Both the position numbers and the translations under genes were made by a program. A stretch of DNA of 63,338 nt, counting the filler. It is 4 parts of 4 records of this genome, joined end to end, with 100 filler letters (N's around TTAATTAATTAA, not from the genome) between each part and the next. Parts side by side here need not be neighbours in the genome. Positions count along the whole stretch, not along the records: positions 11,640 to 40,790 come from SRR20825006_1781; 3 more parts are not named here. One strand, given 5' to 3'. The notes beneath the pieces are model-generated. The model was not told where the DNA came from and ran no database searches. It saw only the letters and a list, made by a program, of their open reading frames with translations. Positions 26,473 through 44,604 of the stretch are shown here, in pieces. Position 1 is the stretch's first letter. The number at the start of each line of letters is the position of its first letter.

Positions 26473-27279
26473 TCAGCGGGTCAGCAGGGCTTCTGCTTTT
26501 TGCACAATCAGATAGATGCCAACCGAGATCAGACTGAGGATCACAATCGCGGCCATCACCATATCCATGCGGAAAATCTGGCTGCCGTAGACGATCAAAT
26601 ACCCGAGACCAGCTTTGGACGCCTGAAATTCCCCCACAATCACCCCCACAAGGCTCAGACCGACATTGGCTTTCAACGTCGCCATGAAGGTGTGAACATT
26701 GCCCGGCAAAATCACCTTGGTCAGGATTTGCACCTGTCCTGCCCCAAGGGTTTTCGCCAGTTTGATCTTGTTGGGATCGCTTTGGTTGAACCCAGTGTAG
26801 AGCATCAGAATCGTGATGAACAACGCCACGGCAATGGCGACGGCATAGATCGACCCGGTCGGGCCCAACCAGATGTAAAAGATCGGCACCAAGGCGATTT
26901 TTGGCAGGGCGTTGAGCACCACCAAGAAGGGATCAAGCACCCGTTCCAACATCGGCGACAACCATAAACAAATGGCGATCACTGTGCCGAGGATCATGGC
27001 GATGGCAAAGCTGATCATCACCTCCATCAGCGTGACGCCAATATGAAGCCCCAGTTTGCCCTGTGCAATCAGGTCCCAAAACCCGTCCCAAACGGCACTT
27101 GGGTAACTGGTGAGCATCGGATTCACCATGCCGTTGCGCGGCGCATATTCCCAGAGAGCCAAAAAGCCCAACAGCAAAAGCAGGCGCCCGACGATCACTT
27201 TTCGGCGGGCGCGGCCCTGACGTGCTGCCCAGTTTTGATAGGCGACGCTTGGCGTCGCGTTCGGGGTCGTGTCAGCCAT
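26473..27279 (-). CDS. NitT/TauT family ABC permease
   Basis: LNALPKIAL.P, VIVGEF..SK.GLG; start set at MADTT, overlapping the ATPase stop. Confidence 0.88.
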   Translation of the reverse strand: MADTTPNATPSVAYQNWAARQGRARRKVIVGRLLLLLGFLALWEYAPRNGMVNPMLTSYPSAVWDGFWDLIAQGKLGLHIGVTLMEVMISFAIAMILGTVIAICLWLSPMLERVLDPFLVVLNALPKIALVPIFYIWLGPTGSIYAVAIAVALFITILMLYTGFNQSDPNKIKLAKTLGAGQVQILTKVILPGNVHTFMATLKANVGLSLVGVIVGEFQASKAGLGYLIVYGSQIFRMDMVMAAIVILSLISVGIYLIVQKAEALLTR

Positions 27280-28081
27280 CGGATTCCATCTCCGTCCAGA
27301 TTGTGTGGAAATAGTCTTTGAACTCCTCCGCATCGCGCACCGCCATGCAGCCGGGACGCACCTCGCCCAAACTTGGGAAGGTGATCTCATGAATGTTTTT
27401 GAGCCGTCCGGGGCGCGGGCTCAAAACAATCACCCGGTCGGCCATGGCGATGGCTTCAGGGATGTCATGGGTGACAAGGATCGCGGTCTTGCCCTCGCGC
27501 CGGATGATCTCGCCGATTTCTTCGGAAATCGACATGCGGGTCTGAAAATCCAGCGCCGAAAACGGTTCATCAAGCAAAAGGATATCCGGCTCCATACACA
27601 TGGTTCGCCCCAACGCCGCGCGTTGACGCATCCCGCCCGACAATTGCGTTGGACGGTGATGCAGGAACTGCCCAAGACCGTAATTCGTCAAAATCCGCTC
27701 GGCCCGCGCTCGTGCGGCGGGCATGTCCATGCCGCGAATTTCCGGCCCAAGCAGCGCGTTCTCAAGGATGGTGCGCCATTCAAACAAGCTGTCATGTTGC
27801 AACATAAACCCCACTTGCGGCGAAGGGCCTTTGACGGGTTTCCCGTCGATCAGCACCTGTCCCGAAGTCGTTTGCATCAATCCGCACAGCAGAGACAGCA
27901 ACGTCGATTTGCCACAGCCGGATTGCCCGACGATGGAAATGAATTCCCCTTTGTTGACGGTGAAATTCATGTCACTCACGGCGTGGGTTTCGCCCTTGGT
28001 CGAAAAGTAATGCAGTTCGACGTTGCGAAATTCAATTTTGGGCGGCACCGCGAGGGGCCGCCCTGTGGTATCGCCCGTCAT
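27272..28081 (-). CDS. NitT/TauT family ABC ATP-binding protein
   Basis: GQSGCGKST, LSGGMRQR, LLDEPFSALD, VTHD. Confidence 0.92.
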   Translation of the reverse strand: MTGDTTGRPLAVPPKIEFRNVELHYFSTKGETHAVSDMNFTVNKGEFISIVGQSGCGKSTLLSLLCGLMQTTSGQVLIDGKPVKGPSPQVGFMLQHDSLFEWRTILENALLGPEIRGMDMPAARARAERILTNYGLGQFLHHRPTQLSGGMRQRAALGRTMCMEPDILLLDEPFSALDFQTRMSISEEIGEIIRREGKTAILVTHDIPEAIAMADRVIVLSPRPGRLKNIHEITFPSLGEVRPGCMAVRDAEEFKDYFHTIWTEMESDG

Positions 28082-29085
28082 TATTGCGCACTCTGCGCAA
28101 AGAAACTGGGATCGACGACGTTTTCAAAAGCCACTTTTGTCTCAACGGCCAAAAGGCCGTTGTACATCAACATGTCTTGAAGGGCATCAATGGCCTCAGG
28201 CGCAACCGCAGGCGTGGTTTTCCAAACGCCTGCCGCACGGTGCCGCAGCACGCTTTGGGCCAACTCATCCAGACCGACGCCGGGGAAATAGGGCTGCAAA
28301 ACCTGTGCAACATCGGCCTCCGGGGCCTCGGCAATCCAGGCCTCAGCCTTGGCGATTGCTTTGACAAAGCCCGCAACCACCTCTGGATGCTCGGCGATAT
28401 AGGCTTCGCGGGCAATAAAGACCGTATAGTCGATGTCACCGACCGCTTGTCCGACATTGGTTTGGGCATACAGACCGTTGGCCTCAAGCGTGGTCACATC
28501 CGGTTCAAAGAAGGTGCCATAATCGGCAACGCCCGACATGAAGGCCCCCATCCGGGCGGGAATGGCAACGTTGGTGATGATTTCAACATCTTCGTCCGGG
28601 TTCAAACCGGCCTTTTCAAGCGCCGCGCGCAGGAACATCGCCGGGGACGAGCCTTCGCGCCAGCCCAGGATTTTTTTGCCCTTCAAAGAGGACCAATCAA
28701 AGTCGCCTGTCGCGGGGTCGTGCCCGATCAGAAAGGAGCCATCCGTTGCCGTCAGCCCGGCAATGATGCGAATTTTCTCAGGCGACTTTCCAGTCTCGAC
28801 ATAAAGCGTGGTCTCTGGCCCGGCGAGCGCAATGTCCACAGAGTTCGAGAGCAAGGCGGCCGTCACCTTGTCGCTGCCCTGACCGGCGATGAGATCAAAG
28901 GCGATGCCCTCTTCCTCAAAATAACCATTGCCGATCGCGACATAGAGCGGTGAATAAAACAGCGAGTGAATGACCTCCATGAAGGAGATTTTGGTCACAT
29001 CTTCGGCGGCAGCCGGTGTGGGCAATGTCGTCAGCGTTGCCGCCGTGATGCCAGCGATAAAGGAAAGAGTGCGTGCGATTTTCAT
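28081..29085 (-). CDS. NitT/TauT (NMT1/SsuA-like) substrate-binding protein
   Basis: Signal peptide; FYSPLYVAI..GYFEEEGI, FEP motif; first gene of the ABC operon. Confidence 0.85.
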   Translation of the reverse strand: MKIARTLSFIAGITAATLTTLPTPAAAEDVTKISFMEVIHSLFYSPLYVAIGNGYFEEEGIAFDLIAGQGSDKVTAALLSNSVDIALAGPETTLYVETGKSPEKIRIIAGLTATDGSFLIGHDPATGDFDWSSLKGKKILGWREGSSPAMFLRAALEKAGLNPDEDVEIITNVAIPARMGAFMSGVADYGTFFEPDVTTLEANGLYAQTNVGQAVGDIDYTVFIAREAYIAEHPEVVAGFVKAIAKAEAWIAEAPEADVAQVLQPYFPGVGLDELAQSVLRHRAAGVWKTTPAVAPEAIDALQDMLMYNGLLAVETKVAFENVVDPSFFAQSAQ

Positions 29086-29155
29086 AATACCTCCTGTTGA
29101 CGAGAGTGTTGTATTTTTTGCCGAAAGTGTTGTGATCTGGACCTATCGACTTGGA

Positions 29156-29173
29156 TTGTAGTATACAATATAC
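29156..29173. promoter_or_regulatory. GTATAC-core operator-like site between the divergent ABC and amidase operons
   Basis: TTGTAGTATACAATATAC; the same core recurs at 33483, 33578, 33737 and 38602. Confidence 0.6.
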
Positions 29174-29245
29174 TGAACTGAGGTCACTAAAATACCCCAG
29201 CAAGAGCAAATAATTTGCGCACAAACCGACCATGGAGATCATAAA

Positions 29246-29932
29246 ATGAGCAAAGTGCACCCGTTTGAGATGCCCGACTGGGCCGTTGAGCGCATCAACG
29301 CCCGCCAAGGTCGCCTGCATGTACACGATTCCCTCCCTGCGGATCGGACCGCTCTGGTCGTGGTCGACATGCAAAACTATTTTCTTGATCCGCAAAGCGG
29401 TGCCAGTGTGCCCAATGCACGGGCCATCGTCGGCAACATCAACCGGCTGGCCAAGGCGTTACGCCAAGCGGGCGGAACCGTGGTCTGGATCAGAACGCTC
29501 TACACCGAACAGGCGCTGGCCGAGATCCCGCATTTTCATCAAACCTTGCTGACGCCCGCGCGGTTCGAAACCCGTTGTGCCGCGTTGGAGCGCGAGGCCG
29601 AAGGTTCGCAAATTTGGCCTGCTCTTGATGTACGCGACGAGGATATGATCGTCGAAAAGACCCGCTATAGTGGGGTGATCCAAGGTGCAGGCGATTTGGA
29701 ACATAGGCTGCGCGCGGCGGGTATTGAGGCGATTTTGGTGGGAGGAACCATGACCAATGCCTGTTGTGATTCCACCGCGCGGGACGCGATGATGCTCAAC
29801 TTTCGGACAACTATGGTGCATGATGCCTGTGCCTCCCTGCGCGATGACGAACACGCCTTTGCCTTGATCAATTTCGCGCTGTTCTTTGGTGATGTGACGA
29901 ATACGACTACATTGATTGAACGCTATAGCTGA
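29246..29932 (+). CDS. Isochorismatase-family cysteine hydrolase (RutB/NicF-like amidohydrolase)
   Basis: Asp-Lys-Cys triad: VVDMQNYF, EKTRYS, TNACCDSTARDA. Confidence 0.88.
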   Translation: MSKVHPFEMPDWAVERINARQGRLHVHDSLPADRTALVVVDMQNYFLDPQSGASVPNARAIVGNINRLAKALRQAGGTVVWIRTLYTEQALAEIPHFHQTLLTPARFETRCAALEREAEGSQIWPALDVRDEDMIVEKTRYSGVIQGAGDLEHRLRAAGIEAILVGGTMTNACCDSTARDAMMLNFRTTMVHDACASLRDDEHAFALINFALFFGDVTNTTTLIERYS

Positions 29933-29982
29933 ACGAAAGAGAGGGGCGTTTTGACCACGACACCTTACACAGGCAGCCCAAC

Positions 29983-30750
29983 ATGAAACTGGCGCTGTTT
30001 CAATCCGCGCCAGCCGACCATTCAGTTGAGCGGACAGAGGCGCTTTTGCACACGGCGGCACGCCAAGGTGCCGACGTGCTTGTGCTGCCCGAATTGTTTT
30101 TTCCCGGATACAATCGGCCCGATTTACATCACGCCGAGGCTCAGCCGATCGCGGGCGCTTGGATGGATGATCTGCGCGCGCGGGTGGCGGGCACGGGATG
30201 TGCGTTGGTGTTTGGTTGGGCCGAACGGTCAGGATCAACAGTCTATAACGCGGCAAGCTGCATAGGTGCAGATGGCGCGATTTTGTCGCATTACCGCAAA
30301 GTTCAGCTTTTCGGTGACATGGAGCGTGCGAGTTTTACAGCGGGCGATCACCTATCCCCGACCTTCCAACTTGCCGGGCGCAGATGCGGGATATTGATCT
30401 GTTATGACATCGAGTTCCCCGGCCATGCTGCAACACTGGCGCGCGCCGGAGCGGAGGTCCTTTTTGTCCCAACCGCCAATCCCGCCGGCTATGAACACGT
30501 CCAAGACGTGCTGGTCCCGGCCCGCGCCCATGAAAGCCGCGGCTTTGTCGCCTATGCCAACTCGTGCGGCGCCGAAAACGGCATACAATTTGGCGGCGGA
30601 TCGGTGATTGCCGGGCCCGATGGGCGCGCGCTGGCGCAGGCAGGTCGTGACGAGACGCTTTTGATCGTTGATCTGCCGAAACTCACAGACTATCCGCCGG
30701 AAGCCCTGTCAATGCAGGGGACTGAGTTTCGCCCTGCCCCGATAAAATAA
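29983..30750 (+). CDS. Carbon-nitrogen hydrolase (nitrilase superfamily amidase)
   Basis: Glu-Lys-Cys triad: LPELF, YRKVQLF, ICYDIEFP. Confidence 0.9.
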   Translation: MKLALFQSAPADHSVERTEALLHTAARQGADVLVLPELFFPGYNRPDLHHAEAQPIAGAWMDDLRARVAGTGCALVFGWAERSGSTVYNAASCIGADGAILSHYRKVQLFGDMERASFTAGDHLSPTFQLAGRRCGILICYDIEFPGHAATLARAGAEVLFVPTANPAGYEHVQDVLVPARAHESRGFVAYANSCGAENGIQFGGGSVIAGPDGRALAQAGRDETLLIVDLPKLTDYPPEALSMQGTEFRPAPIK

Positions 30751-30813: not shown

Positions 30814-31857
30814 CTATTCCGCCGCCGCCGGATGAACATGGCGTTTGTTGTAGCGCAGCGAAGAGACAAGCGAGAGCAGGATAAAGCCTGCACCGATCAG
30901 CCCGGTGATCACCTCTGGGATATGCACGAGGCTTTGCACGAACATCACGCAAGACAACACAAACACCGAATAGAACGCCCCGTGTTCGAGATAGCGAAAC
31001 TCGGTCAGCGTTTCCTTTTCCACCAACATGATCGTCATCGAGCGCACATACATCGCGCCGATGCCCAGACCGACAGCGATGAGAAACAGGTTCTGCGTCA
31101 GGGCAAAGGCCCCGATCACCCCGTCGAAACTAAAGGAGGCATCCAGCACTTCGAGATACATGAACGCACCGAACCCGCCCGCCGCCATCATCGGCCCACG
31201 ATCAAGAACATGCCCAAGCGTTTCAACGGCAATAAAGGCCACCAAGCCCGCAATCGCAGCGACCAGAAATGAGCCGCGTTCCGCCTGATCAAGAAACCCT
31301 GAGATCAGCAAGACAATGAGCAACACCAAACCAATCGCCACTCCACGCACGGACGCCCACCTGCGCAAAAGATTTTCGAGCGGGCGCAGCCAATCGACCT
31401 CCTTGTCGGGGTCGATAAAATAGTTCAACGCCACCATCATCAAAAACGTCCCACCAAAGGCCGAGATCGACAGATGCGCTGCCCCAATCAGGCGCGCATA
31501 TTCGGAAGGTTCGGTGGCGGCCAAGCGAATGGCCTCGATCGGACCAATTTTGGCGGCGATAGAGACAACAGCCAGCGGAAAGATGATCCGCATGCCAAAG
31601 ACGGCAATCAGAATGCCCCAAGTCAGAAAGCGCCGCCGCCAGACGTCGCTCATATCTTTGAGTTTATTGGCATTCACGATGGCATTGTCGAAGCTCAACG
31701 AGATTTCCAGAACTGAGAGAATAACCCCAATTGTAGCAAAGGCGATCATGCCGGAGACCCGCCCGGTATAGGCCCAGCCGAGCCAGATACAGAGCCCAAT
31801 CCCGATCACGGTGACGGCAAAGCTCCAGCGAAAATATTTGAATATGGACGAGGACAT
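30814..31857 (-). CDS. DUF475 (TerC-superfamily) membrane protein
   Basis: LEISLSFDNAIVNA, GILIAVFGMR, YLEVLDASFSFDGVIGAFA, YLEHGA. Confidence 0.88.
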   Translation of the reverse strand: MSSSIFKYFRWSFAVTVIGIGLCIWLGWAYTGRVSGMIAFATIGVILSVLEISLSFDNAIVNANKLKDMSDVWRRRFLTWGILIAVFGMRIIFPLAVVSIAAKIGPIEAIRLAATEPSEYARLIGAAHLSISAFGGTFLMMVALNYFIDPDKEVDWLRPLENLLRRWASVRGVAIGLVLLIVLLISGFLDQAERGSFLVAAIAGLVAFIAVETLGHVLDRGPMMAAGGFGAFMYLEVLDASFSFDGVIGAFALTQNLFLIAVGLGIGAMYVRSMTIMLVEKETLTEFRYLEHGAFYSVFVLSCVMFVQSLVHIPEVITGLIGAGFILLSLVSSLRYNKRHVHPAAAE

Positions 31858-31905
31858 GGTGCCTCGATCCCCCTGTGTTGCGAGCGCGTGCAAAGGCGGC
31901 TCTGG

Positions 31906-32955
31906 TTACAGATTGTGAGCGAAGTGAAAGCTATCCACATAGATGTGGTTGACGCTCGCCCCGGCTTCAAGAAACCGCCCACGTGCCGCGCCGATCATCG
32001 CCGGCGAGCCGCACAGATAGAGCGCATGTTCTGACAGATCGGGCAGATCTTCGAGCACCGCATCCTGGACATAGCCTCGCCGCCCCGACCAGCTTTCTGC
32101 GGCACGCGACAGGACCGGAACAAAGGTGAAATCCTCCAACGCCGCGCCCGACATGGCGATCTCATCGGCGAGGTAAAGCTCGCTTTCCTCGCGCATCCCC
32201 CAATAGAGCGCGACGGGTGGACAGTCCGGATCGCCCTTAAGCGCCGCAAGCATGGCGCGCAGCGGCGCGATGCCCGTGCCTGTGGCGACCAAAACGAGCG
32301 GACGAAAATCATCGAGACGCAGGCGGAACAGCCCATGCGGTCCATGCAGCGCCACGACCTCCCCGCATTTGAGCGCCGGGACGATGCCAGCGGTGAACAT
32401 TCCGCCGGGGATGGTGCGGATGTGCAATTCGATCATGGTCTCATCTGGCGCTGAGGCAATCGAAAACGACCGCGTGGCACCGCTCTGTGTGACCACATCC
32501 ACATATTGCCCCGGAAGAAACGCCGGCATGCCGCCAACAGGCGACAACCGCAGCCGGGTAATGTCACCGCAAACCTGATCGACGGCCAAAACCTGAGCCG
32601 TGATTTGGGACGGTTCGGGGCGATCTGTTGGCATCAACGGCGCTTCGATCACGAGGTTGGTTTGCGCCCGCGCCTGACAGGCCAGCGCAAAACCGCATCC
32701 GCGCTCCTGGTCGCTCAATCCAATGGGATCATCCGCATAGGCGACACCGCCCTCCAAAACCCGTACCCGGCAAGAGCCACAGAACCCGGTCTTGCACTCA
32801 TGGGCCAACTCAATCCCGGCGTTCAAAGCCGCCGCGAGCACGGATTCATGTGGCTGGACCGGAAAGGTTTTGCCGGTTTCGGCCAGGGTCACATGCAGAG
32901 CCGCAGTTTCCGACGTGCCCTCTTCGACTTTGTGAACTGCGCGAATGATAGTCAT
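31906..32955 (-). CDS. [2Fe-2S]-FAD-NAD(P)H oxidoreductase (oxygenase reductase component)
   Basis: CKTGFCGSC...LAC, RSFSIAS, GTGIAP, YLCGSP.MI. Confidence 0.9.
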   Translation of the reverse strand: MTIIRAVHKVEEGTSETAALHVTLAETGKTFPVQPHESVLAAALNAGIELAHECKTGFCGSCRVRVLEGGVAYADDPIGLSDQERGCGFALACQARAQTNLVIEAPLMPTDRPEPSQITAQVLAVDQVCGDITRLRLSPVGGMPAFLPGQYVDVVTQSGATRSFSIASAPDETMIELHIRTIPGGMFTAGIVPALKCGEVVALHGPHGLFRLRLDDFRPLVLVATGTGIAPLRAMLAALKGDPDCPPVALYWGMREESELYLADEIAMSGAALEDFTFVPVLSRAAESWSGRRGYVQDAVLEDLPDLSEHALYLCGSPAMIGAARGRFLEAGASVNHIYVDSFHFAHNL

Positions 32956-32962
32956 GATGGCC

Positions 32963-33442
32963 TCACTTTTTGATGTCGGCGGCGACAAGAACCTCATGCC
33001 CTTGCGGGCTCAAAAGATCGGACAGGGCTTGCAGCGCCGCAACGCCCGCGGCTGTGTCCTGTTCGCCATTGCCGCCCGACAGGCCAACGCCGCCAACGAC
33101 CTCGCCATCGACGACAATCGGAAAGCCGCCAACGAAAACGGCGAACTTGCCTTCAAAGGACAATTGGATACCAAACGCCTCATTGCCCGGTAGCGCCGGA
33201 CCGTTGGGGGCCTTGTTGAACAGATGGGTCGAACGTTTGTGCGTGGCCGCCGTAAAGGCCTTATTCCAACTGATTTGCGGGCCTGTGACGCGCGCACCAT
33301 CCATACGTTCGATCAGGATCGGGAATCCCCCATCATCCGCGATGCAAATTGTTTCGAGCACCCCGATTTCTTTGGATTTTTCAACAGCGGCCGCGATCAT
33401 CACGCGCGCCTCTTCGGACTGAAGTCTGAGGACAGTTTTCAA
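32963..33442 (-). CDS. GlcG/HbpS family heme-binding protein
   Basis: ERMDGA, KAFTAA, GGFPI..DGEVVGGVGLSGG..EQD; TTG start. Confidence 0.88.
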   Translation of the reverse strand: MKTVLRLQSEEARVMIAAAVEKSKEIGVLETICIADDGGFPILIERMDGARVTGPQISWNKAFTAATHKRSTHLFNKAPNGPALPGNEAFGIQLSFEGKFAVFVGGFPIVVDGEVVGGVGLSGGNGEQDTAAGVAALQALSDLLSPQGHEVLVAADIKK

Positions 33443-33480
33443 TGGATCATCTCTTGAGTTGTGCGATTGTAACTTTTATT

Positions 33481-33744
33481 TTGTATACTGTTTTCAAAAA
33501 TATCCCCCTTATGCAACTTATTTTTGGCAAAATAAGTCAGAAATCCCCCAAATGGCTCATCATATGTCATTTTTTTAGTATACCAAATTATGGAAATTTT
33601 TAAAACGAAAGCGCCGGAGCTGACGCGAGCACCTCTGTCCTGAGGATGAAAATCGCGATTCCCGCCGGTCACCTCAAGTACTGCCCCAAAATCCGATCAT
33701 GCCGCCTCACGACTTGGCAAGCCGCTTTGGTATCTGGTATACAA
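33481..33744. promoter_or_regulatory. Three GTATAC-core sites in the glcG/gntR divergent region
   Basis: TTGTATACTG (core 33483), AGTATACCAAATT (33578), TTGGTATCTGGTATACAA (33737). Confidence 0.6.
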
Positions 33745-33806
33745 CTTCATGAAACGCGCGCGGCCCACCCCGACCGCGCGCCACAAAAGAGACGGCAGGA
33801 CAACAG

Positions 33807-34460
33807 ATGACAGTGGCTCTGGGAGACGCGCACACACCATTGACGAAAATGGTCAAGGATGCGCTACGCCAACGGATTTTGAACGCCGAATTCGAAACCG
33901 GCGCCCGCCTTGTCGAAGGTCGGATTTCCGAGGAAATGGGCGTGTCGCGCATGCCCGTGCGCGAGGCGTTGCGGGAACTGGCCGCCGAAGGTCTGGTCAA
34001 GATCATTCCCCGGCGCGGGGCGACCGTCTCGATGCCCGCGCCCGATCAGAAAATGGAATTGATCGAAGTGCGCGCGACGCTTGAATCGCTCAATGCCAAG
34101 CTCGCGGCCAAGCGCAAAGACCCAGAGCGGATCGCCGAATTGCAGCGTGTTCTTGCGGCGGGCGAAAACGCCATCGAAGAGGGTGATTTTAGCCAAATCA
34201 GCGCCCATAACGACGCGTTTCACACCGCACTTGGCCAGGTGTCGGGCAATGCGACCCTTCAGGACCTGATCCGCACGCTGCGCGACCAAACCGCGATGCT
34301 GTTTAAGCAAGATGACCCGGTGAAAGTGTCAAAGAGCTGGCAGGAGCACGCCGACATTCTGCGCGCGGTGATTGCCGGAGACGAAGAACTTGCAGCCCTT
34401 TTGGCGGCGCGCCACGTGTATAATTCGGTCGACACGCCGGAGGCGACAGACGAGGTCTAA
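33807..34460 (+). CDS. GntR (FadR/FCD) transcriptional regulator
   Basis: wHTH GVSRMPVREAL..L.AEGLV...PRRG; FCD residues NDAFH, EH. Confidence 0.93.
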   Translation: MTVALGDAHTPLTKMVKDALRQRILNAEFETGARLVEGRISEEMGVSRMPVREALRELAAEGLVKIIPRRGATVSMPAPDQKMELIEVRATLESLNAKLAAKRKDPERIAELQRVLAAGENAIEEGDFSQISAHNDAFHTALGQVSGNATLQDLIRTLRDQTAMLFKQDDPVKVSKSWQEHADILRAVIAGDEELAALLAARHVYNSVDTPEATDEV

Positions 34461-34477
34461 GGCCCCGCAGATCCACC

Positions 34478-35227
34478 TCAAAATGCCGCCCGCAGCAAAA
34501 GCCCGACCGCGCTGAGGGCGGACAGCCCCAAAAGCACATGACGGATCGCGCCTTTTGGCACATGCCGCGCAAGGTGTGTTGAAACGGTGAAACCCAAAAG
34601 CAGCGCAGGCAACAACAACAGACCCAACAGCAGTTGATGTAGGCCAAAGCGCCCCACCGACGCCAGCAACAACAACGATGTTGTCGCACCAAAAAAGAAG
34701 GTGAAATTCAGCGTCGCCCGCAAGGTGGCGGGGGCCGCGTTTTGCATGACGATCGCATAGGGCGGCGCGCCCGAAGAGGTGATCGTGCCCATAATGCCCG
34801 ACGTGATCCCAGCCGCCCCCAACGTGCGCCAATTGGCAACGATCCTCAGGCCACTATAGCTCAGCGCCACGCCCAATAAGATCAGCACCGCGAAGAGAAT
34901 GTAAAAGCTTGTCGCACTCAACAGTGTCATCACGGCCACGGCGATGAAATTGCCAATCACCCGGCCTGTGATCATCATGCCCGCCGATTTGTAATCGATC
35001 GCGGAGCGTTCGCGCAGAACCACCATGACCGACAGGCATCCCCCCAGAACCAGCAGCGGGCCGGGTGCCATTTCCGGGAAAAACAGCGCCGACAGCGGGG
35101 CCGAGAACATGGCAAAGCCCAAGCCCCCCACGCCTTGGAGAATGGCGGCGACAAAGACCATCGCCACCATGCCCAAGACATGCAGGGTCAATAGATTTCC
35201 GCCGATCAGATCGTGGACAAACTCCAT
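34478..35227 (-). CDS. TauE/SafE family membrane protein (sulfite exporter family)
   Basis: About 8 hydrophobic helices; QGVGGLGFA and GIMGT.TSSGAPP repeats. Confidence 0.8.
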   Translation of the reverse strand: MEFVHDLIGGNLLTLHVLGMVAMVFVAAILQGVGGLGFAMFSAPLSALFFPEMAPGPLLVLGGCLSVMVVLRERSAIDYKSAGMMITGRVIGNFIAVAVMTLLSATSFYILFAVLILLGVALSYSGLRIVANWRTLGAAGITSGIMGTITSSGAPPYAIVMQNAAPATLRATLNFTFFFGATTSLLLLASVGRFGLHQLLLGLLLLPALLLGFTVSTHLARHVPKGAIRHVLLGLSALSAVGLLLRAAF

Positions 35228-36673
35228 TCAGCCCCCCAGGTAGACGCTTTTGATCCGGCTGTAGAAGTCCATCACATTGGCCCCGCCTTGCTCTTTCGCG
35301 CTTTGATTGGAGGAATGTTTGAACCCGCCGAAGGGGGCGTTGAGCGCCACACCCGTGGTCGGGCTGTTGACCTTGACCACACCGTGCTGGGTTTTCTGCG
35401 CAATTTTGAGAATGGACGCCATGTCATTGGACACAAGGGAAATGGCCAGACCGTATTCGGTATCATCCGCGATCTCGATCGCCTCATCGACGCTATCGAC
35501 AGCTCGCACAGCCACGACCGGCGCGAAAATTTCGTCGCGCAAAAGACGGCTGTCTGCAGGCACGTCAGCGATCACGGTCGGACGGATAAAGAAACCATTG
35601 GCGAGATCAGAAGAGGCCTCGGGCAAACCGCCGGTGGTGATCCGCCCGCCTTCCTGCTTGGCGATGCCAAGGTAGGCTTTGACCTTATCAAGCTGCGCAC
35701 TGGTGGCCAGTGGCCCCATCGTCACGCCCTCGCGCGTGCCCGCACCGATGGTGATCCCAGCGGCGGCGGCCGAGAGTTTCTCGACCAGCGCGTCATAATG
35801 GCTGCGCGCCACAAGCACGCGGCTCGTGCCGGTACAGGCCTGACCCGTCAGACCAAAAGCGCCGCGCCGAATGATGTCCACCGCGCGATCCAGATCGGCA
35901 TCTTCCAACACCACGGTGGCGTTTTTGCCGCCCATTTCCAACTGACACCGGGTATCTGTGGTCAAAGCGGACGCGATTTGCATCCCCACCCCGTAGGATC
36001 CGGTAAAGGTCAGCGCGTCGATCCCCGGCGTCGAGGTGATGGCCTGGCCCACGGTGGCGCCGCGACCGTGAATAAGGGCGATGAGGCCTTTTGGCAGCCC
36101 CGCATCCAACAACACCTCAACTAGGCGCTGACCCATCAAGGGGGTCATTTCGGACGGCTTGAAAATCACCCCATTGCCCGCCGCAAGCGCAGGCGCGATT
36201 TTGCGCGCCGCCATCGACAGCGGGAAATTCCACGGTGTGATCACAGCAACAACGCCCACAGGCTGGCGCAACGTCAATGCGATTTGCCCCTCAGGCATCG
36301 GGAAACTTTCGCCCTTCAAACGCAGCGCCTCCCCCGCATAAAAGCGAAAGTTGGCGGCGATCCGGCTGGTTTCATTGCGCGCCTCAGTGAGGGTCTTGCC
36401 CTCCTCACGGGTCAGTTCCGCGGCAATGGCGTCAATGCGCGACGAGATAATATCGGCCGCTTTGTAAAGCACATCCGCCCGCGCCTCTGGACCTTTGGCG
36501 GCCCATGCCGGCCACGCGGCGGACACGGTTTCGACGGCGGCGGCCACATCCTCCATCCCGCCATTCGGAAACAGGCCGATGAGGTCGGTTTGGTCGGCGG
36601 GATTGCGGTTTTCAAACGTCTCGCCGGAGAGGGCCGGAACCCAGTCCCCGCCAATAAAATTGAGATAAGACAT
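35228..36673 (-). CDS. NAD(P)-dependent aldehyde dehydrogenase
   Basis: ITPWNFP, FTGS, LEMGGKN, GQACT (catalytic Cys), EIFAPV, PFGG.K.S. Confidence 0.93.
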   Translation of the reverse strand: MSYLNFIGGDWVPALSGETFENRNPADQTDLIGLFPNGGMEDVAAAVETVSAAWPAWAAKGPEARADVLYKAADIISSRIDAIAAELTREEGKTLTEARNETSRIAANFRFYAGEALRLKGESFPMPEGQIALTLRQPVGVVAVITPWNFPLSMAARKIAPALAAGNGVIFKPSEMTPLMGQRLVEVLLDAGLPKGLIALIHGRGATVGQAITSTPGIDALTFTGSYGVGMQIASALTTDTRCQLEMGGKNATVVLEDADLDRAVDIIRRGAFGLTGQACTGTSRVLVARSHYDALVEKLSAAAAGITIGAGTREGVTMGPLATSAQLDKVKAYLGIAKQEGGRITTGGLPEASSDLANGFFIRPTVIADVPADSRLLRDEIFAPVVAVRAVDSVDEAIEIADDTEYGLAISLVSNDMASILKIAQKTQHGVVKVNSPTTGVALNAPFGGFKHSSNQSAKEQGGANVMDFYSRIKSVYLGG

Positions 36674-36700
36674 GTTTGCCCCTTGTGTCGCGCGGCCCGT

Positions 36701-37021
36701 TCAGGCGCGCTTTTGCGTTTCTTTTAAAGGAGGTTCGCCCCAGGACACTTTGACATCGCCGCGCACGAAGGTCTGGCAGGCCATGCGAAACCCATTGGCC
36801 ACATCCTCGTCAGTCAAATGTTTGCGCTCTTTGGCTTTCACGTCGTCGGTATGTTCCAACCCCTCGACCACCTTGCAGCGACAGGTGCCGCAAAATCCGC
36901 CACCACATTTGAACGGAATACCGCCCTTTTCGCGCAGCGAGGCGCGCAAAAGATTGCTGCCCGCATCGACAGAAATGGTTTTGTTGTCGTTGGGAATAAA
37001 GGTGATGTTGATCTTATCCAT
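36701..37021 (-). CDS. [2Fe-2S] ferredoxin
   Basis: CGGGFCGTC...RMACQ. Confidence 0.9.
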   Translation of the reverse strand: MDKINITFIPNDNKTISVDAGSNLLRASLREKGGIPFKCGGGFCGTCRCKVVEGLEHTDDVKAKERKHLTDEDVANGFRMACQTFVRGDVKVSWGEPPLKETQKRA

Positions 37022-37082
37022 GGCCTGTCTTTGTGCGTTCTATGATTTGGTCAGGCGACCGGGGGAGACGATTTGGCGCGGC

Positions 37083-37376
37083 TCACACGGCGCGCAGCTC
37101 GATATCCATGCTGCCGAAATGGGTCAGAACATTCAGTTCCGCCCGCGCCTCTTTGACCGTGTCAAAGGACTCGAACATTTTGCACGGCACCTTGTTGACG
37201 ATATGCGGCGGCTCGTCTTCGACGATGGTGATGCGGTCGGCATCGACGATCTCGGCAATGGTGAAATTTGCGCGCTTGCGACCATAAAAAATGTAATCAT
37301 AGGATTCGATGAGCACGACGCCATCGCCCATGATTGTGCGGAATTCATCGGGTTTGGTGGTCAGAATGACATACAT
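37083..37376 (-). CDS. Small acidic protein of unknown function (97 aa) between two ferredoxins
   Basis: Starts MYVILTTKP after a GAGG RBS; co-directional; only one Cys, so not an Fe-S protein. Confidence 0.75.
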   Translation of the reverse strand: MYVILTTKPDEFRTIMGDGVVLIESYDYIFYGRKRANFTIAEIVDADRITIVEDEPPHIVNKVPCKMFESFDTVKEARAELNVLTHFGSMDIELRAV

Positions 37377-37432
37377 GAGACAGCCCTCGGCAAGGATAAA
37401 GGAAGCACCGCCCCTTGGGGCGATACAAAGAC

Positions 37433-37726
37433 TTAGACGTCTTGTGCGAGTTCGATATCTTCGGTGACCCAGAGCTGACACGCGAGGCGGTAGCCCTCGT
37501 CCAATCGTTCACCAAGTTGGCGTTTCTCTTTCCAGTTTGGCGGCTCCAAATGGTCCGCCCCGGCCAGAATGCGACAGGTACAGGTCGAGCATTTGCCCAT
37601 GCCGCATTTATAGGCCAGATTGGGGAACGGAAACTTACGGATTCCGGCGCTGACCACAAGGTTGGTTTTAGGCGCAACGTCGCCCTCAAACACCTCGCCG
37701 CCCTTGTGCAAGATAACTTTTGGCAT
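37433..37726 (-). CDS. [2Fe-2S] ferredoxin
   Basis: CGMGKCSTC...RLACQ; start set at MPKVILH. Confidence 0.88.
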   Translation of the reverse strand: MPKVILHKGGEVFEGDVAPKTNLVVSAGIRKFPFPNLAYKCGMGKCSTCTCRILAGADHLEPPNWKEKRQLGERLDEGYRLACQLWVTEDIELAQDV

Positions 37727-37778
37727 GAGATTTTCCGGCTGGGAGAGGCGGGCCGAAACCCACCTCTCAGGGGTCAGA

Positions 37779-38510
37779 TCAGGCGGCGAGGCCCAGGTCG
37801 GAGAGCGGGATTTCTGCGCCCACATACTCATTATAGAGTGCCGTGGTATAAAGCAGACGCATCTGCGCGCCGATTTCACAGATTTTCAAACATTTCTGCT
37901 GAAGCTCATAGGTGCGGGCGTGTTCCAGAACGATCTGATAGCCGCGCTCGCCGTGGATTTCATCAGAGACGATGTGCAGATCGAAGAATTCGACCTCTTC
38001 GTCGGTGAAACCGTATGTGTCGCGCAATGTCGGAGTTTGCTTGCGGTAGATCGACGGCACCTGGCTTTCGAGACCCACAACAAGGCCCGCGATGGCAACG
38101 ATCGGATCTTCGCGCATCGCCACAGTGTAGCACCACGCCTGAAGTGCACGTGTGGTGGCGGTCATGTTGTCCGGGTTGAGGATGCGCGCGCGATTTGTGC
38201 CACAGGCTTCGCCAAAACGGATCAAAAGATCGGTGTGACGATCTGCCGCCAGCTCTTCTTCATACATGTTCTGAAGCATGAAATCTTTGGCTTCTTCGAA
38301 CTCTGCGGGAAGGCGTGCGTAGACATATGCGAGGTATTCGGCGAAGGGGCCGACATAGTGATAATGGTTTTCACACCAGCGCGCGAGATGGTCGCGCGAC
38401 AGTTTTCCGCTCGCCCAAGCAAGGCTAAACGGGGACGCGTTGGCGGTGTTGCCCTTGATGGCTGTTTCGAGGGCTGTGCGTAGTTCATCGGGATTCAGGA
38501 CTTGGCCCAT
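37779..38510 (-). CDS. Heme-oxygenase-like di-iron oxidase (CADD/PqqC/TenA fold)
   Basis: NMYEEELAADRH (E..H), GLESQ (E) and HIVSDEIH (H-x3-D-x2-H) give a CADD-type 3His/3-carboxylate ligand set; GGAG RBS before MGQV. Confidence 0.85.
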   Translation of the reverse strand: MGQVLNPDELRTALETAIKGNTANASPFSLAWASGKLSRDHLARWCENHYHYVGPFAEYLAYVYARLPAEFEEAKDFMLQNMYEEELAADRHTDLLIRFGEACGTNRARILNPDNMTATTRALQAWCYTVAMREDPIVAIAGLVVGLESQVPSIYRKQTPTLRDTYGFTDEEVEFFDLHIVSDEIHGERGYQIVLEHARTYELQQKCLKICEIGAQMRLLYTTALYNEYVGAEIPLSDLGLAA

Positions 38511-38595
38511 TTCCGTCTCTCCGTGTTGGTTTTTATCTGTGCGGGACCCTGCCGACACCAGCAGATTGCAAGAGTCTTTGAGCTCCTATAGTCAC

Positions 38596-38614
38596 CATAC
38601 TGTATACCAAATTT
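38596..38614. promoter_or_regulatory. GTATAC-core site upstream of the di-iron oxidase operon
   Basis: CATACTGTATACCAAATTT; shares the 12-mer GTATACCAAATT with 33578. Confidence 0.6.
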
Positions 38615-38799
38615 AAGGTCTACAGCTTATTTCACGATGATCCAAAAAGTTAAAATTTACTCATCACCATGTTTTTAATGTATTTTTTAATTTTATGCAA
38701 AAATAACACTCACTGTTAGAAATACAAATTACATACTTTTTTGAATTTATATGTCAGATTGCCGAGAGAGAATCTCCGACACAAGGACGTCACCCCACC

Positions 38800-40266
38800 A
38801 TGACCAAAGCCCCCGCCCCGACCGCCCTCAAAAGCGCGACCGAAGCCGTCGCCACCGGACATCCGCGTGCTGCCGCTGCCGCCATGGCGATGCTCGCACG
38901 CGGCGGAACCGCCGTTGATGCCGCGATTGCGGCGGATGCAGTGCTTGGTGTGGTGGAACCGATGGCGACCGGGCTGGGCGGTGACAGCCTTGCCATGCTG
39001 CTGCCCCCCAATGAGGCCCCGCTGACTTATAATGGCACCGGGTGCGCGCCGATGGCGCTGACCCCCGATCATGTGAGAGCCTTCCCAGATCAAAAAATCC
39101 CCGAACGCCACCCCTATTCGGTCACCACGCCCGGTCTGGCACGCGGCTGGGGGGATTTGCACGCCCGTTTTGGTCGCCTGCCCTTTGCCGATCTGCTCGC
39201 TCCTGCGATTGAGCTTGCGCGCGATGGTTTTGATGTTGCGCCCGTTTGCGCGCGTGAATGGGCGATTTTTGCGCATATCATTCAAAACGACCCGGCGTCG
39301 AACTTGATATATCACGGCGCGAACATCCCAAAGGCCGGGGACCGTTTTGCCAATCCCGCATTGGCGGATCTTTTGGCCTCCATCGCTACCCACGGCCCGG
39401 ATGCGTTTTATAAAGGTGTGGCGGCAGAGGCGATCGAACGAGCCGCACGGGCGCGCGGCGCGCTTTTGACCGTCGAAGACCTTGCCACGCATGAGGGCTT
39501 TTTTGATGTTCCGGTGCGGCGCATGTTCAAAGGCATCGAAATTCTCGAATGCCCGCCCAACACCCACGGCATCGGCGTGCTCAAGGCGCTTGAGACACTC
39601 GACACACTGGACCTGCCGATGGACGATCCTATGAGCATGATCGAGGTGGTCAAAGCCACCCGTGACGGCATGAAATACGCTCGCAACACCGTCGCCGATC
39701 CGTCCGGCAATACCGTATGCACCGCCATTGTTGATCGCGAGGGCTTTGCCGTCACCCTGATGAGCAGCGTCTTCAAACGGTTTGGATCGGGCATTGGCGT
39801 GCCGGAACTGGGCATTTGCTTGCAAAACCGCGGCCACGGATTTTCCGCACCGGGGCATATCAATGGTGTGGCGGGTGGCAAGCGGCCCTACCATACCGTC
39901 ATCCCGGCGGCGGCGCTCAAGGATGGCGCGTTTCATGCAGTCTTTGGCGTGGTCGGCGGGTTGATGCAGCCGCAGGGCCATATTCAGCTGATGCTGCGCG
40001 TGGCGGCATGGGGGCAAGACGTGCAAGAGGCGATCAATGCGCCGCGCTGGCGACTTGAAAGCGACACGCGCATCGCCCTTGAGCCGGGCAGTGATCCGGC
40101 CTTTGCCACGGCGCTCAAAGCGGCAGGGTTTGAGGATGCGACGGGCGCGGGTGAATTGGGCGGGCGCAGTGACTTTGGCGGGGCGCAATGCGTCGTGCGC
40201 GCGCCCGATGGCGGGCTGATCGCCGGGTCGGACCCACGCAAGGACGGCACGACATTGGGGCGCTAA
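38800..40266 (+). CDS. Gamma-glutamyltransferase-family Ntn hydrolase (cytoplasmic; HpxW/YwrD-like)
   Basis: GGTAVDAAIA, GLGGD, GN|TVCTAIVD (Thr nucleophile), LQNRG, KRPYHT, GGLMQPQG, SDPRKDG; no signal peptide. Confidence 0.9.
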   Translation: MTKAPAPTALKSATEAVATGHPRAAAAAMAMLARGGTAVDAAIAADAVLGVVEPMATGLGGDSLAMLLPPNEAPLTYNGTGCAPMALTPDHVRAFPDQKIPERHPYSVTTPGLARGWGDLHARFGRLPFADLLAPAIELARDGFDVAPVCAREWAIFAHIIQNDPASNLIYHGANIPKAGDRFANPALADLLASIATHGPDAFYKGVAAEAIERAARARGALLTVEDLATHEGFFDVPVRRMFKGIEILECPPNTHGIGVLKALETLDTLDLPMDDPMSMIEVVKATRDGMKYARNTVADPSGNTVCTAIVDREGFAVTLMSSVFKRFGSGIGVPELGICLQNRGHGFSAPGHINGVAGGKRPYHTVIPAAALKDGAFHAVFGVVGGLMQPQGHIQLMLRVAAWGQDVQEAINAPRWRLESDTRIALEPGSDPAFATALKAAGFEDATGAGELGGRSDFGGAQCVVRAPDGGLIAGSDPRKDGTTLGR

Positions 40267-40790: not shown

Positions 40791-40890
40791 NNNNNNNNNN
40801 NNNNNNNNNNNNNNNNNNNNNNNNNNNNNNNNNNTTAATTAATTAANNNNNNNNNNNNNNNNNNNNNNNNNNNNNNNNNNNNNNNNNNNN
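40791..40890. other. Artificial contig-joining spacer
   Basis: N44-TTAATTAATTAA-N44. Confidence 0.98.
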
Positions 40891-41104
40891 AGAATTTCTG
40901 GATGTTTAAACTGCATTCCTATAAATATTTTTCAAAGATAAAAAATGGAATGTAATAATAGCTATTTCTTGGCAGTAAACGTAAATGTAATTTTTTTTTG
41001 GAATTTGTGGTTAAAAAAAAGTAACCGCCAACTTTAAAGCCAAGGGAAACAATTTTCAGCTCATTTTTTAATAAAAAAGCTAACTGTACAATAAAAAATA
41101 TTGT

Positions 41105-42307
41105 TTATCCCTTTTTTACATAAAACTGAAACGTTGTTCCTTTACCTACTTCAGATGTAACTTCAACTTCCCCGTCGAGTTTGTTAATTAGTTTCTTTAC
41201 AGTTGATAGACCGATTCCATTTCCTTTTTTCCCATTTCGGTCTAATGTTCCTGAAGTTGTAAAAAGGTTGAAAACATGTTCCATTTTATCCTTTGGAATG
41301 CCCATACCATTATCAGAGATTTTAAAATGATAAAAACCTTTTTTTTCGCTACAATCTATATCAATTTTAATCTTTTCCTTGTCGTTATATTTTAAACTGT
41401 TGCCAACTAAATTTAGGAAAATCTGTTCTAAAGCCGCTTTGTTGGCGTGCATTTCTAGGTTTTGATCAGGAAGGTTTATTTCGCAATCAATATTGATGTT
41501 CATTAATTCAATAATATCTTCAAGAAGGTCATGGCTATCAAAAACTTCAACCGTTTGTGAGGCGGTATTATCACTTTCATAATGCTCTAAAAGCCCAGTA
41601 ATATATTCACTTAAAGTAAATGAAGATTGTTTTATATAATCTAAATATTCATTTCCTTCCTTATCTAAAAAGCGCCCATATTTTGAGCGAAGCATATCTG
41701 AAGTAATTATCATATTTGCCAAAGGCATTTTCATATCGTGGGAAACAATACCTGCGAAATTTTTAAGCTCCTCGTTGCGTTCCTTTAATTCCTGTTGAAC
41801 AGCCAATAAAATTCTGTTACGTTTTTTAGATTCAAAAAGGTTAATAACTTGATATGCCAAAGCTGTTAATGCTTTTTTCTGAGCTGAAGAAAGTGTTCGC
41901 GGTTTTGTGTCGAATATACAAAGTGTACCAAGAGGATACCCATCGGTATTCACCAAACGCACACCAGCATAAAATACTGCTTGCATATCTTTAACAAAAG
42001 GGTTGTCTTTAAATCGAGGATCCTTTCTGGCGTCTTCAATAATAAAGATATTGCTTTCATCTAAAATAGCATGTCCGCAAAAAGAAATATCGCGTGGGCT
42101 TTCACTAAAATTCACGCCATAATGTGATTTTAAAAAGTTGCGATCGGCATCCAACAAGGTCACCAAAGATATTGGCACATCACAGATACTTGCAGTTAAT
42201 TGCGTGATGTTGTCAAAATCCTTTTCAGGCAAAGTATCCAGTAAATTGTACGAATACACAGCTGCTAAACGCTGTTCTTCATCAATTGGGAGGGCTGGTT
42301 TAATCAA
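41105..42307 (-). CDS. Cytoplasmic GAF-domain sensor histidine kinase
   Basis: GAF (SFCGHAI, FYAG..L, GTLC..D); H-box SHDMK.PL; N-box, DNGMGI, GIGLS. Confidence 0.9.
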   Translation of the reverse strand: MIKPALPIDEEQRLAAVYSYNLLDTLPEKDFDNITQLTASICDVPISLVTLLDADRNFLKSHYGVNFSESPRDISFCGHAILDESNIFIIEDARKDPRFKDNPFVKDMQAVFYAGVRLVNTDGYPLGTLCIFDTKPRTLSSAQKKALTALAYQVINLFESKKRNRILLAVQQELKERNEELKNFAGIVSHDMKMPLANMIITSDMLRSKYGRFLDKEGNEYLDYIKQSSFTLSEYITGLLEHYESDNTASQTVEVFDSHDLLEDIIELMNINIDCEINLPDQNLEMHANKAALEQIFLNLVGNSLKYNDKEKIKIDIDCSEKKGFYHFKISDNGMGIPKDKMEHVFNLFTTSGTLDRNGKKGNGIGLSTVKKLINKLDGEVEVTSEVGKGTTFQFYVKKG

Positions 42308-42412
42308 ATTATCGATTTATTTATACTTTTTGTCTAACAATTAAGAGTAAATGTACAACAATTTCCAGTTAATGTTAACAAGAAATAGATATGTGCTATG
42401 TTAAAATTTTAT

Positions 42413-43177
42413 TCAAAAATTTTCAAAGATACCTAATCCAAAGAGAGCAAAATCATACTTAACAGGATCTTTAGGGTCAAATTTCCGTAATGATGCATCT
42501 AATTCGGTTAAAGCTTTAGCGTCATTTTGTTTTCTGGTAAGTAATTTTAGTTTTCGAGCTACATTGCCACTGTGAACATCTAAAGGGCAAGAAAGTTGCG
42601 AAGGCGAAATACTATTCCAAATTCCAAAATCGACTCCTGTATTATCGTTTCGCACCATCCAGCGTAAAAACATATTGATTCTTTTTGCTGCAGAATTTTT
42701 AAGCGGATCGCTAATGTGTTTTTGAGTTCTAGGAAGATGGGGAAGTTCAAAAAAAGTCTTCTTAAATTGATGAATTGCGGGTTGTATCGTGTTTTTTTGT
42801 ACATGTTTAGCAAAAACAGCTTCCAAGCCACCGTGATTTCTATATATGTTTTGAAGCGATTTTATAAAATAAAATAAATCATCACTATTAAAAGTACGAT
42901 GTACAAAACCTAACAATTCAGAGGCATTATTTTCTGAAAAATTCATCACATACTCAAATGGTGAATTGTCCATGATGTCCATTAATCGATGCCCGTTTTT
43001 TATAATGCTTTTTCTGTTTCCCCAAGCAATAGTAGCTACTAGAAAACCAGCAATTTCAATATCTTCTTTTAATGAAAATTTATGTGGAACTTGAATAGGA
43101 TCTGACTCAATGAAATTTGGGTTATTATAAAGTATAACCTTTTCATCGAGGAATTCTTTTAACTCACGCTGTTTCAT
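42413..43177 (-). CDS. TIGR02757 / DUF2400 family protein
   Basis: DPIQ.PH, IAWG.R, KRINMFLRWMVR, PLDVH, DPVKYDFALFG. Confidence 0.85.
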   Translation of the reverse strand: MKQRELKEFLDEKVILYNNPNFIESDPIQVPHKFSLKEDIEIAGFLVATIAWGNRKSIIKNGHRLMDIMDNSPFEYVMNFSENNASELLGFVHRTFNSDDLFYFIKSLQNIYRNHGGLEAVFAKHVQKNTIQPAIHQFKKTFFELPHLPRTQKHISDPLKNSAAKRINMFLRWMVRNDNTGVDFGIWNSISPSQLSCPLDVHSGNVARKLKLLTRKQNDAKALTELDASLRKFDPKDPVKYDFALFGLGIFENF

Positions 43178-43180
43178 GTG

Positions 43181-43840
43181 TTATTTCACAATTTTTCCAT
43201 CCTGCATCACAAGTTTCCGATCCGCCATATTTGCAAGGTCTTCGTTGTGAGTTACAATGACAAAAGTTTGTCCAAACTCATTTCGTAATTTAAAAAACAG
43301 ATTATGGAGATTTTCAGCACTTTCAGTATCTAAGTTTCCGCTTGGTTCATCTGCTAGAATTATTGCAGGATTGTTTATTAATGCTCTAGCAACAGCCACG
43401 CGTTGTTGTTCTCCACCAGAAAGTTCGTTTGGTTTGTGGTTTTCACGGCTAGAAAGACCTAAAAAAGCAAGGAGCTCTTTTGCTCTTTTTAATGCTTCAG
43501 CTTTTGGTGTGTTTTTTATGAAAGCAGGAATACAAACATTTTCAATTGCAGTAAACTCTGGTAATAATTGATGAAACTGAAAAATAAATCCTAAATTTTC
43601 ATTTCGAAACTTAGCCAATTTTTTTCCTGAAAGAGAACCAACATCCACTCCATTTATCTGTAATTTACTTTTAGAATCATGTAAAGAATCTAAAGTTCCT
43701 AATATTTGAAGTAATGTAGTTTTTCCAGCACCTGAAGCTCCAACAATTGAAACAATTTCACTTTTTTTTATATGAAGATCAACCCCTTTTAAAACATGTA
43801 GATTGTCATAATATTTGTGGATGTTTTGTGCCTCGATCAT
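43181..43840 (-). CDS. lolD: ABC ATP-binding protein, LolD-like
   Basis: [39 protein letters not shown]. Confidence 0.85.
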
Positions 43841-44562: not shown

Positions 44563-44604
44563 TTTTTGGAATGTTTTTTGCGTTTATAATTAAAAAGATA
44601 AGAA

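Follow-up and report, generated by a model that had tools for sequence, protein, structure and literature searches.

Gene content of the locus

The 63,338-nucleotide stretch of DNA analysed here (the window) carries, at positions 31906-40266, a cluster of genes that includes a heme-oxygenase-like di-metal oxygenase (HDO) and is predicted to function in the catabolism of dipicolinic acid (DPA, pyridine-2,6-dicarboxylate). The window is composed of four contigs joined by N runs around TTAATTAATTAA, a six-frame stop linker at 11584, 40835 and 57656. The cluster is located on contig 2 (11640-40790), which has ~58% GC and shares 98-100% DNA identity with one stretch of the nearest genome compared (G001).

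The HDO gene (37779-38510, minus strand) encodes a protein of 243 amino acids (aa) that matches Pfam PF14518 (Haem_oxygenas_2; E 7e-35, 120.8 bits against a cutoff of 28.9) and is a putative orthologue of DipD. Five genes follow it on the same strand. The first (37433-37726) encodes a DipJ-like [2Fe-2S] ferredoxin of 97 aa (Fd1) with a plant-type cysteine pattern in translation (C41-X4-C46-X2-C49...C83) and weak matches to NCBIfam 2Fe-2S families (E 4e-6). Next are a DipK-like protein, also of 97 aa, that falls in no Pfam or NCBIfam family (37083-37376), and a DipL-like [2Fe-2S] ferredoxin of 106 aa (Fd2; 36701-37021; Pfam Fer2, E 3.5e-15). The last two encode an aldehyde dehydrogenase (ALDH; 35228-36673; Pfam Aldedh, E 3.5e-152) and a TauE/SafE-family membrane protein (34478-35227; Pfam TauE, E 3.2e-19), the likely counterparts of DipE and DipA. 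A GntR/FadR-type repressor with Pfam GntR and FCD domains, a putative DipR orthologue, is encoded on the plus strand (33807-34460). Beyond it, on the minus strand, are genes for a GlcG/HbpS-like (DUF336) protein, the putative DipF (32963-33442; Pfam HbpS-like, E 6e-32), and for a reductase with Fer2, FAD_binding_6 and NAD_binding_1 domains, the putative DipG. The best NCBIfam matches of the DipG-type reductase are BenC and MmoC, under their cutoffs, and the coordinates given for it (31906-32997) are those of the longest open reading frame (ORF), the actual start of which may lie ~14 codons downstream. Divergent from the HDO gene, a plus-strand gene (38800-40266; Pfam G_glu_transpept, E 1.4e-104) encodes a gamma-glutamyltranspeptidase-family (GGT, Ntn hydrolase) protein, the putative DipC.

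A first-pass annotation of this DNA had proposed a new catabolic oxygenase system here. All of the genes that it named are present and the family scans support their assignments, and the "contig" to which its statements about gene content refer is 11640-40790, one of the four contigs of the window.

A heme-oxygenase-like protein with a putative di-metal site

The HDO protein was said to carry a full CADD-type set of metal ligands, and this is borne out by alignment. Residues E85, H92, E148, H179, D183 and H186 (E...H, E, H-x3-D-x2-H) align with the ligand positions of CADD and show no variation among all 45 homologues in the alignment. The AlphaFold2 model of the protein (pLDDT 91.3) is all-helical, and its seven-helix heme-oxygenase-like fold gives 42 PDB matches at E<=0.001, with CADD, PqqC, FlcD, UndA and HrmI at the top and BesC also among the best. 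The closest is CtCADD (8va9_A; TMt 0.86, rmsd 2.5 A). From the ligand alignment and the model, we infer that the protein belongs to the HDO superfamily and holds a di-metal centre. It is 100% identical to the HDO protein of Celeribacter baekdonensis DSM 27375 and, among the matches listed, 77-91% identical to homologues in Alpha- and Betaproteobacteria; 130 columns of the alignment are invariant. At least 561 relatives were confirmed among 600 candidate stretches.

Databases label the protein TenA/PqqC, and its nearest solved relatives by sequence are CADD-type para-aminobenzoate (pABA) synthases (E 4e-13 to 1e-12), with PqqC at E 2e-9. It might then be a self-sacrificing pABA synthase of the CADD type, a PqqC or a TenA thiaminase that lies beside redox genes by chance, an explanation that we regard as extremely improbable. 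CADD has a sacrificial Tyr27 (PMC9522330), and the corresponding position is an invariant Ser29 in the HDO homologues. The protein also scores far below the cutoffs of the CADD model TIGR04305 (86.4 bits against 200) and the PqqC model TIGR02111 (38.4 against 240). Because Tyr27 is replaced by Ser29 and the family models are so far below cutoff, the protein is not a pABA synthase. The candidate PqqC was rejected on its family score and on the lack of pqq genes among the annotated ORFs of contig 2. As the first-pass annotation had stated, no folate, thiamine or non-ribosomal peptide synthetase genes were seen among those ORFs either.

Correspondence to the published dip cluster

A dip cluster for DPA catabolism has been described in Alcaligenes faecalis JQ135 (Jiang et al. 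2024, PMC11472048). In that cluster, dipD encodes the "monooxygenase component", which is essential for conversion of DPA to 3-hydroxy-DPA, and 18O is incorporated from O2 (PMC11472048).

The published DNase-footprint sequences of the regulator DipR (PMC11472048) were used as probes. The dipB-promoter footprint was found in 7 of 401 genomes (family of G002) and is exact in five. Each of these five has, ~3.2 kb from the footprint, a gene whose product shares 81-82% identity with the window HDO. One locus, assigned to Alcaligenes by its protein names (L084), has exact copies of both published footprints between its TauE gene and a gene for a 505-aa membrane protein. The first half of this locus reads GntR (minus), TauE (minus), the 505-aa gene (plus), GGT (plus, with a 4-bp overlap), a GTATAC site, and then the HDO, ALDH, GlcG and reductase genes. 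The second half consists of a 63-aa minus-strand ORF, a 202-bp gap with two GTATAC sites, Fd1, the 97-aa ORF (4-bp overlap), Fd2 and an OCD-like gene. This layout fits the published transcription units, with -4 bp overlaps and 202 bp as the largest gap, and on these grounds dipD would be the HDO gene, dipE the ALDH, dipF the GlcG and dipG the reductase, while dipJ, dipK and dipL would be Fd1, the 97-aa ORF and Fd2, dipA the TauE gene and dipC the GGT gene. In L084, the gene at the dipD position heads a four-gene unit after dipBC, and its product is 82% identical to the window HDO.

Ten window genes have counterparts in L084, at 44-82% identity. Relative to the Alcaligenes genes at the corresponding positions, identity is 75% for GlcG (which is 72-97% identical across the related loci), 64-66% for Fd2, 59-62% for Fd1, 54% for the GGT-family protein, 49% for the TauE protein and 47% for the reductase. 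The counterparts of dipF, dipG, dipJ, dipK and dipL are all present, at 47-75%. Mu et al. 2022 are reported to count these five among the components of a multicomponent DPA monooxygenase, with dipF as a heme-binding protein, dipG as a ferredoxin reductase and dipJ, dipK and dipL as ferredoxins, and to regard DipD as an oxygenase unlike known ones. The 63-aa ORF of L084 (12768-12959, minus strand) is the sole candidate for dipH. It has three weak matches in the 77 loci and none in the window, and it is doubtful as a real gene.

The system is therefore not new. The claim of discovery in the first-pass annotation falls because the cluster matches the published dip cluster (PMC11472048), which the dip publications had already characterised.

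A DipR-type regulator and its putative operators

The repressor DipR, of the GntR/FadR type, recognises GTATAC sites (at dipA, GAATAC) and dissociates from them in response to DPA, with R63, R67, H196 and H218 as its key residues (PMC11472048). The window GntR protein and Alcaligenes DipR share 51% identity. The four key residues correspond to R48, R52, H181 and H203 in the window protein and all are kept, including two histidines of the effector domain.

The motif GTATAC occurs five times in the window, a count that is unremarkable by itself (66 of 100 shuffles reach it), and all five sites fall in three intergenic promoters of the cluster that together span ~0.8 kb. One putative DipR operator is in the divergent promoter between dipD and dipC (38602-38607). 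Three are in the divergent intergenic region between dipF and dipR, at 33483, 33578 and 33737 (33483-33742). The fifth (29161-29166) lies between an operon for an NMT1-type ABC transporter (26473-29085, minus strand) and an operon for an isochorismatase-like hydrolase and a CN-hydrolase (29246-30750, plus strand), and its position between them suggests that both operons belong to the regulon. Of 73 related loci, 67 have a GTATAC site in the 300 bp preceding the HDO gene, as compared with ~6% expected from a background of 0.22 sites per kb. The box at 29161 shares a longer identical flank with the box in the Alcaligenes dipD promoter (window 29147-29180, L084 8855-8888), which suggests that the operator may be wider than the 6-bp core.

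Co-occurrence across related loci

The window proteins were searched by tblastn against 77 loci, and co-occurrence was counted in the 51 that have full 10-kb flanks. Fd2 is present in 51/51 of these, Fd1 and the 97-aa ORF in 50/51 each, GlcG in 49/51, GntR in 46/51, ALDH in 44/51, the reductase in 41/51, TauE in 39/51 and GGT in 17/51. Co-occurrence of these partners is far beyond chance. The first-pass annotation had suggested a gene-neighbourhood check of the ferredoxins, the 97-aa ORF, the reductase, ALDH and GlcG, and these are indeed co-conserved with the HDO gene (41-51 of the 51 loci). Lineages differ in the order of these genes, and in Aminobacter, to take one case, 6-9 kb separate HDO-GlcG-reductase from Fd1-97aa-Fd2-ALDH-TauE. 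Shuffled order combined with kept partners argues for a functional module rather than inherited synteny. The first-pass idea of a catabolic multicomponent oxygenase built on a CADD/PqqC-type fold and served by its own reductase and ferredoxins is supported by this conservation of the partner genes.

Clustering of neighbouring ORFs added the 505-aa membrane protein (38/70 loci) and an OCD/mu-crystallin protein (26/70). One contig of Aminobacter sp. HY435 has two HDO copies ~54 kb apart (L018 and L050), one with Fd1-97aa-Fd2-ALDH-TauE and the other with GlcG-reductase-GntR, and thus a split or duplicated dip arrangement. Acetobacteraceae-type loci (L019, L045, L047, L057, L062, L068, L073, L075 and L076) have a compact HDO-Fd1-97aa-Fd2-GlcG arrangement with no detectable ALDH or TauE within 10 kb. 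The reductase is detectable in L019 only, and the others of this group may have its gene at a distant site or in a form too divergent for detection.

The same counts bear on the chemistry that was originally proposed, in which the sp3 carbon of a C-N or C-S bond in an amine, amide or sulfonate is oxidized to an aldehyde, the ALDH acts next and TauE exports sulfite. In favour of this scheme, both ALDH and TauE are encoded in the HDO operon, and the window GntR protein has weak similarity to regulators associated with phosphonates. However, 7 of the 51 full-flank loci lack ALDH and 12 lack TauE, whereas the ferredoxins and GlcG are near-universal, and sulfonate and amine genes are lacking from the regulon. 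For the orthologous system, hydroxylation of the DPA pyridine ring has been published (PMC11472048), and we consider the aldehyde scheme very unlikely. Sulfonates, phosphonates, methylamine, ectoine and gamma-glutamyl amines had been entertained as substrates, prompted by TauE, the phnR-like GntR, the Aminobacter hosts, OCD and GGT, and were dropped once the dip mapping held.

The 97-aa DipK-like protein

The DipK-like protein carries the automatic database name "ferredoxin". It has a single cysteine, which is a serine in most homologues, and thus lacks the four cluster cysteines, and Pfam and NCBIfam scans gave no Fer2 match. The AlphaFold2 model (pLDDT 91.6) is beta-rich, with six strands and one helix. 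A fold search with it returned no PDB matches at E<=0.001 (best TMq 0.38), and the insignificant hits are immunoglobulin- or cupredoxin-like.

A complex of DipD and DipK was predicted with an ipSAE of 0.82, compared with 0.25 for the best control. In calibration, 51 of 78 solved complexes reach the mark used for complexes, as do 2 of 108 mismatched pairs. The runs share at least 80% of contacts, with a partner pLDDT of at least 88. The predicted interface on DipD comprises residues 153-160 and 170-196, and so coincides with the modelled helix 174-197 that bears H179, D183 and H186. The model supports, without proving, binding of DipK to DipD. We infer from these predictions and from the cysteine content that DipK is not a ferredoxin but a cofactor-less, beta-rich subunit that would dock on the metal-binding helix of DipD.

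In SznF and UndA, the equivalent core helix alpha-3 (H-x3-D-x2-H) is described as folding and unfolding with the cofactor, and this underlies cofactor instability (PMC7848743). We hypothesize that DipK has a stabilising or gating role at the di-metal site. A broader proposal is that DipD is the first HDO to act as a multi-turnover aromatic-ring hydroxylase on a chain of NAD(P)H, a reductase and two ferredoxins, with DipK as an MmoB-like subunit of new fold that clamps or stabilises alpha-3. This is a tentative idea, which we hold with somewhat less than even confidence.

Proposed function and alternatives

We conclude that the region 31906-40266 is very probably a Celeribacter-type version of the dip regulon for DPA catabolism, and that extension of the regulon back to ~26470 is probable. 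DipD would be an HDO-fold di-metal oxygenase that hydroxylates the DPA ring. The two electrons needed per turnover could pass from NAD(P)H to DipG, then to the [2Fe-2S] ferredoxins DipJ and DipL, and finally to DipD, so that the architecture of the electron-transfer chain stands as first proposed. DipK, cofactor-less and beta-rich, would dock on the helix with H179, D183 and H186, and DipF (GlcG/DUF336) may be a further conserved accessory protein. ALDH, the GGT-family hydrolase and the TauE protein could serve later steps or transport. The top NCBIfam model of the window ALDH is alpha-ketoglutaric semialdehyde dehydrogenase, and both ALDH types match this model best, at sub-cutoff scores (480 bits for the window ALDH and 575 for the other type, against 770). 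This suggests a late step, after ring opening. In the window lineage, the regulon lacks DipB and DipM and seems to have been extended by the NMT1-type ABC transporter and two amidohydrolases. The ABC transporter probably replaces DipB, and the two amidohydrolases were probably gained.

Several observations weigh against this reading. Identification of dipD as the HDO gene is based on positional mapping and on the reported content of Mu et al. 2022, and the DipD accession ASR91160.1 is not among the 15 members listed of the 316-member cluster. The searchable literature yielded no report on DipD reconstituted in vitro, on its metal content or on its structure. The window and Alcaligenes ALDH proteins are only 44% identical. 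No homologues of DipB (505 aa), DipM (OCD-like) or the 63-aa dipH candidate were detected in the window by tblastn, a gap that may be a variable feature because 30 dip cluster organisations have been reported (PMC11472048). Finally, the DipD-DipK complex prediction used no purpose-made alignments, and in its calibration 7 of 44 neighbouring genes picked blindly pass as well.

Some of these points would also fit a system with the same enzyme family and regulator type but with a different alphaproteobacterial substrate, such as another pyridine or heteroaromatic (di)carboxylate. Such a substrate could account for the absence of DipB and DipM, for the NMT1-type ABC transporter, isochorismatase-like hydrolase and CN-hydrolase found behind a GTATAC box instead, and for an ALDH that is ~70% identical among alphaproteobacterial copies whereas it has diverged from the Alcaligenes copy. 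On the other hand, the cross-class identity of the HDO protein and its 130 invariant columns, the similarly high identity of GlcG, and retention of the key residues of DipR, among them the two histidines of its effector domain, amount to tight conservation that argues for a single substrate. A different substrate is thus unlikely, and DPA is preferred.

Literature and significance

Publications from 2022-2024 already cover the cluster with its substrate, first reaction and regulator. We found no later paper on 3-hydroxy-DPA or DPA monooxygenase in the searchable literature, where the other papers that name dipD do so only as a reference-list citation. A 2026 HDO mini-review has no mention of ferredoxin, DipD or dipicolinate, and no searchable paper brings dipicolinic acid and HDO terms together in a relevant way, although subscription papers or supplements may cover the connection. 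The identification of DipD as an HDO and of DipK as a non-ferredoxin subunit thus appears to be unpublished in the searchable literature. The contribution of this analysis is the link between the DPA-degradation and HDO literatures, which do not cite each other in searchable papers.

If DipD is an HDO, it would give the field a member that is catabolic, amenable to genetics and very widespread (at least 561 relatives), and a natural reductant system for a class known for its unstable cofactors (PMC7848743). DipK would be a candidate stabilising subunit for the HDO field. The marine alphaproteobacterial variant, which has another transporter and additional amidohydrolases, may be relevant to carbon turnover in sediments, because DPA is an abundant spore-derived carbon pool (PMC11472048).

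Other features of the window

Directly downstream of the reductase gene, a minus-strand gene (30814-31893) encodes a DUF475/TerC-family membrane protein (Pfam DUF475, E 8e-101). It is lineage-specific, occurring in 2 of the 77 loci. Upstream of the dip genes on contig 2, positions 13593-26395 contain two additional gene sets and no GTATAC box. One set encodes LamB/YcsF, carboxyltransferase and biotin-carboxylase proteins of the 5-oxoprolinase/allophanate type. The other encodes a sugar-type ABC transporter, a three-subunit molybdoenzyme of the xanthine-dehydrogenase family and XdhC. These sets probably represent a separate N-heterocycle or lactam pathway.

The linker stretches of the window occupy 11541-11639, 40791-40891 and the surroundings of 57656. 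Contigs 1 and 3 have ~30-37% GC, and contigs 2 and 4 have ~52-62%. Contig 1 has no match in the two Celeribacter-like genomes compared (G001 and G003); contig 4, compared with G001 only, likewise lacks a match; for contig 3, the comparison covered 40892-45000, against G001. Given the GC differences and the contigs without a match in Celeribacter-like genomes, the source assembly appears to be a bin of mixed organisms. The jumps in GC had raised the idea of a genomic island in a low-GC host, which was rejected because they coincide with the artificial linkers between contigs. A search of the window found no tRNA or Rfam features. On the low-GC contig 1, a minus-strand gene (5323-8778) encodes a 1151-aa fusion of a PLD-like nuclease, a ResIII/SNF2 helicase, DUF3427 and a C-terminal Peptidase_S24 domain, which looks like a defence or DNA-damage-linked helicase.

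Comparison with known systems

The closest known system is the dip cluster of Alcaligenes faecalis JQ135, with which the window has in common counterparts of dipA, dipC, dipE, dipF, dipG, dipJ, dipK, dipL and dipR, the GTATAC operators and the key DipR residues. The two differ in gene order: in the window, the HDO gene comes first in an operon that also includes the ferredoxins, ALDH and TauE, but in Alcaligenes it leads an HDO-ALDH-GlcG-reductase unit. They also differ in content, as DipB, DipM and the dipH candidate are missing from the window, whereas the ABC transporter, isochorismatase-like hydrolase, CN-hydrolase and DUF475 gene are extra in the window.

The soluble methane monooxygenase (sMMO) and the toluene and phenol hydroxylases are multicomponent monooxygenases with ferritin-like di-iron proteins. 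The logic of these systems, from NAD(P)H through a Fer2-FAD reductase and [2Fe-2S] centres to a carboxylate/histidine di-metal site, is common to the window. A small cofactor-less protein that sits over the metal-binding helices is another sMMO-type feature, and DipK is predicted to be placed alike. The folds are unrelated, however: the window HDO has a seven-helix heme-oxygenase-like fold, whereas sMMO-type enzymes have a ferritin-like four-helix bundle. DipK has no PDB fold match, and hence nothing in it is MmoB-like at significance. The two separate ferredoxins and the GlcG/DUF336 protein of the window are likewise unlike sMMO-type systems.

The HDO-fold pABA synthases CtCADD and NePabS (PDB 1rcw, 8va9 and 9pj4) have the same six-residue metal ligand pattern as the window HDO. 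CADD is a single-turnover enzyme that sacrifices its Tyr27. The serine at this position in the window HDO and the dedicated electron-transfer chain point instead to a catalytic enzyme. The biosynthetic HDOs UndA, BesC, SznF, FlcD, HrmI and RohS have their fold and ligand helices in common with the window HDO (TMq 0.67-0.78). They are without a dedicated in-cluster chain of reductase and ferredoxins, and the dip reaction differs from theirs in being a catabolic hydroxylation of an aromatic ring.

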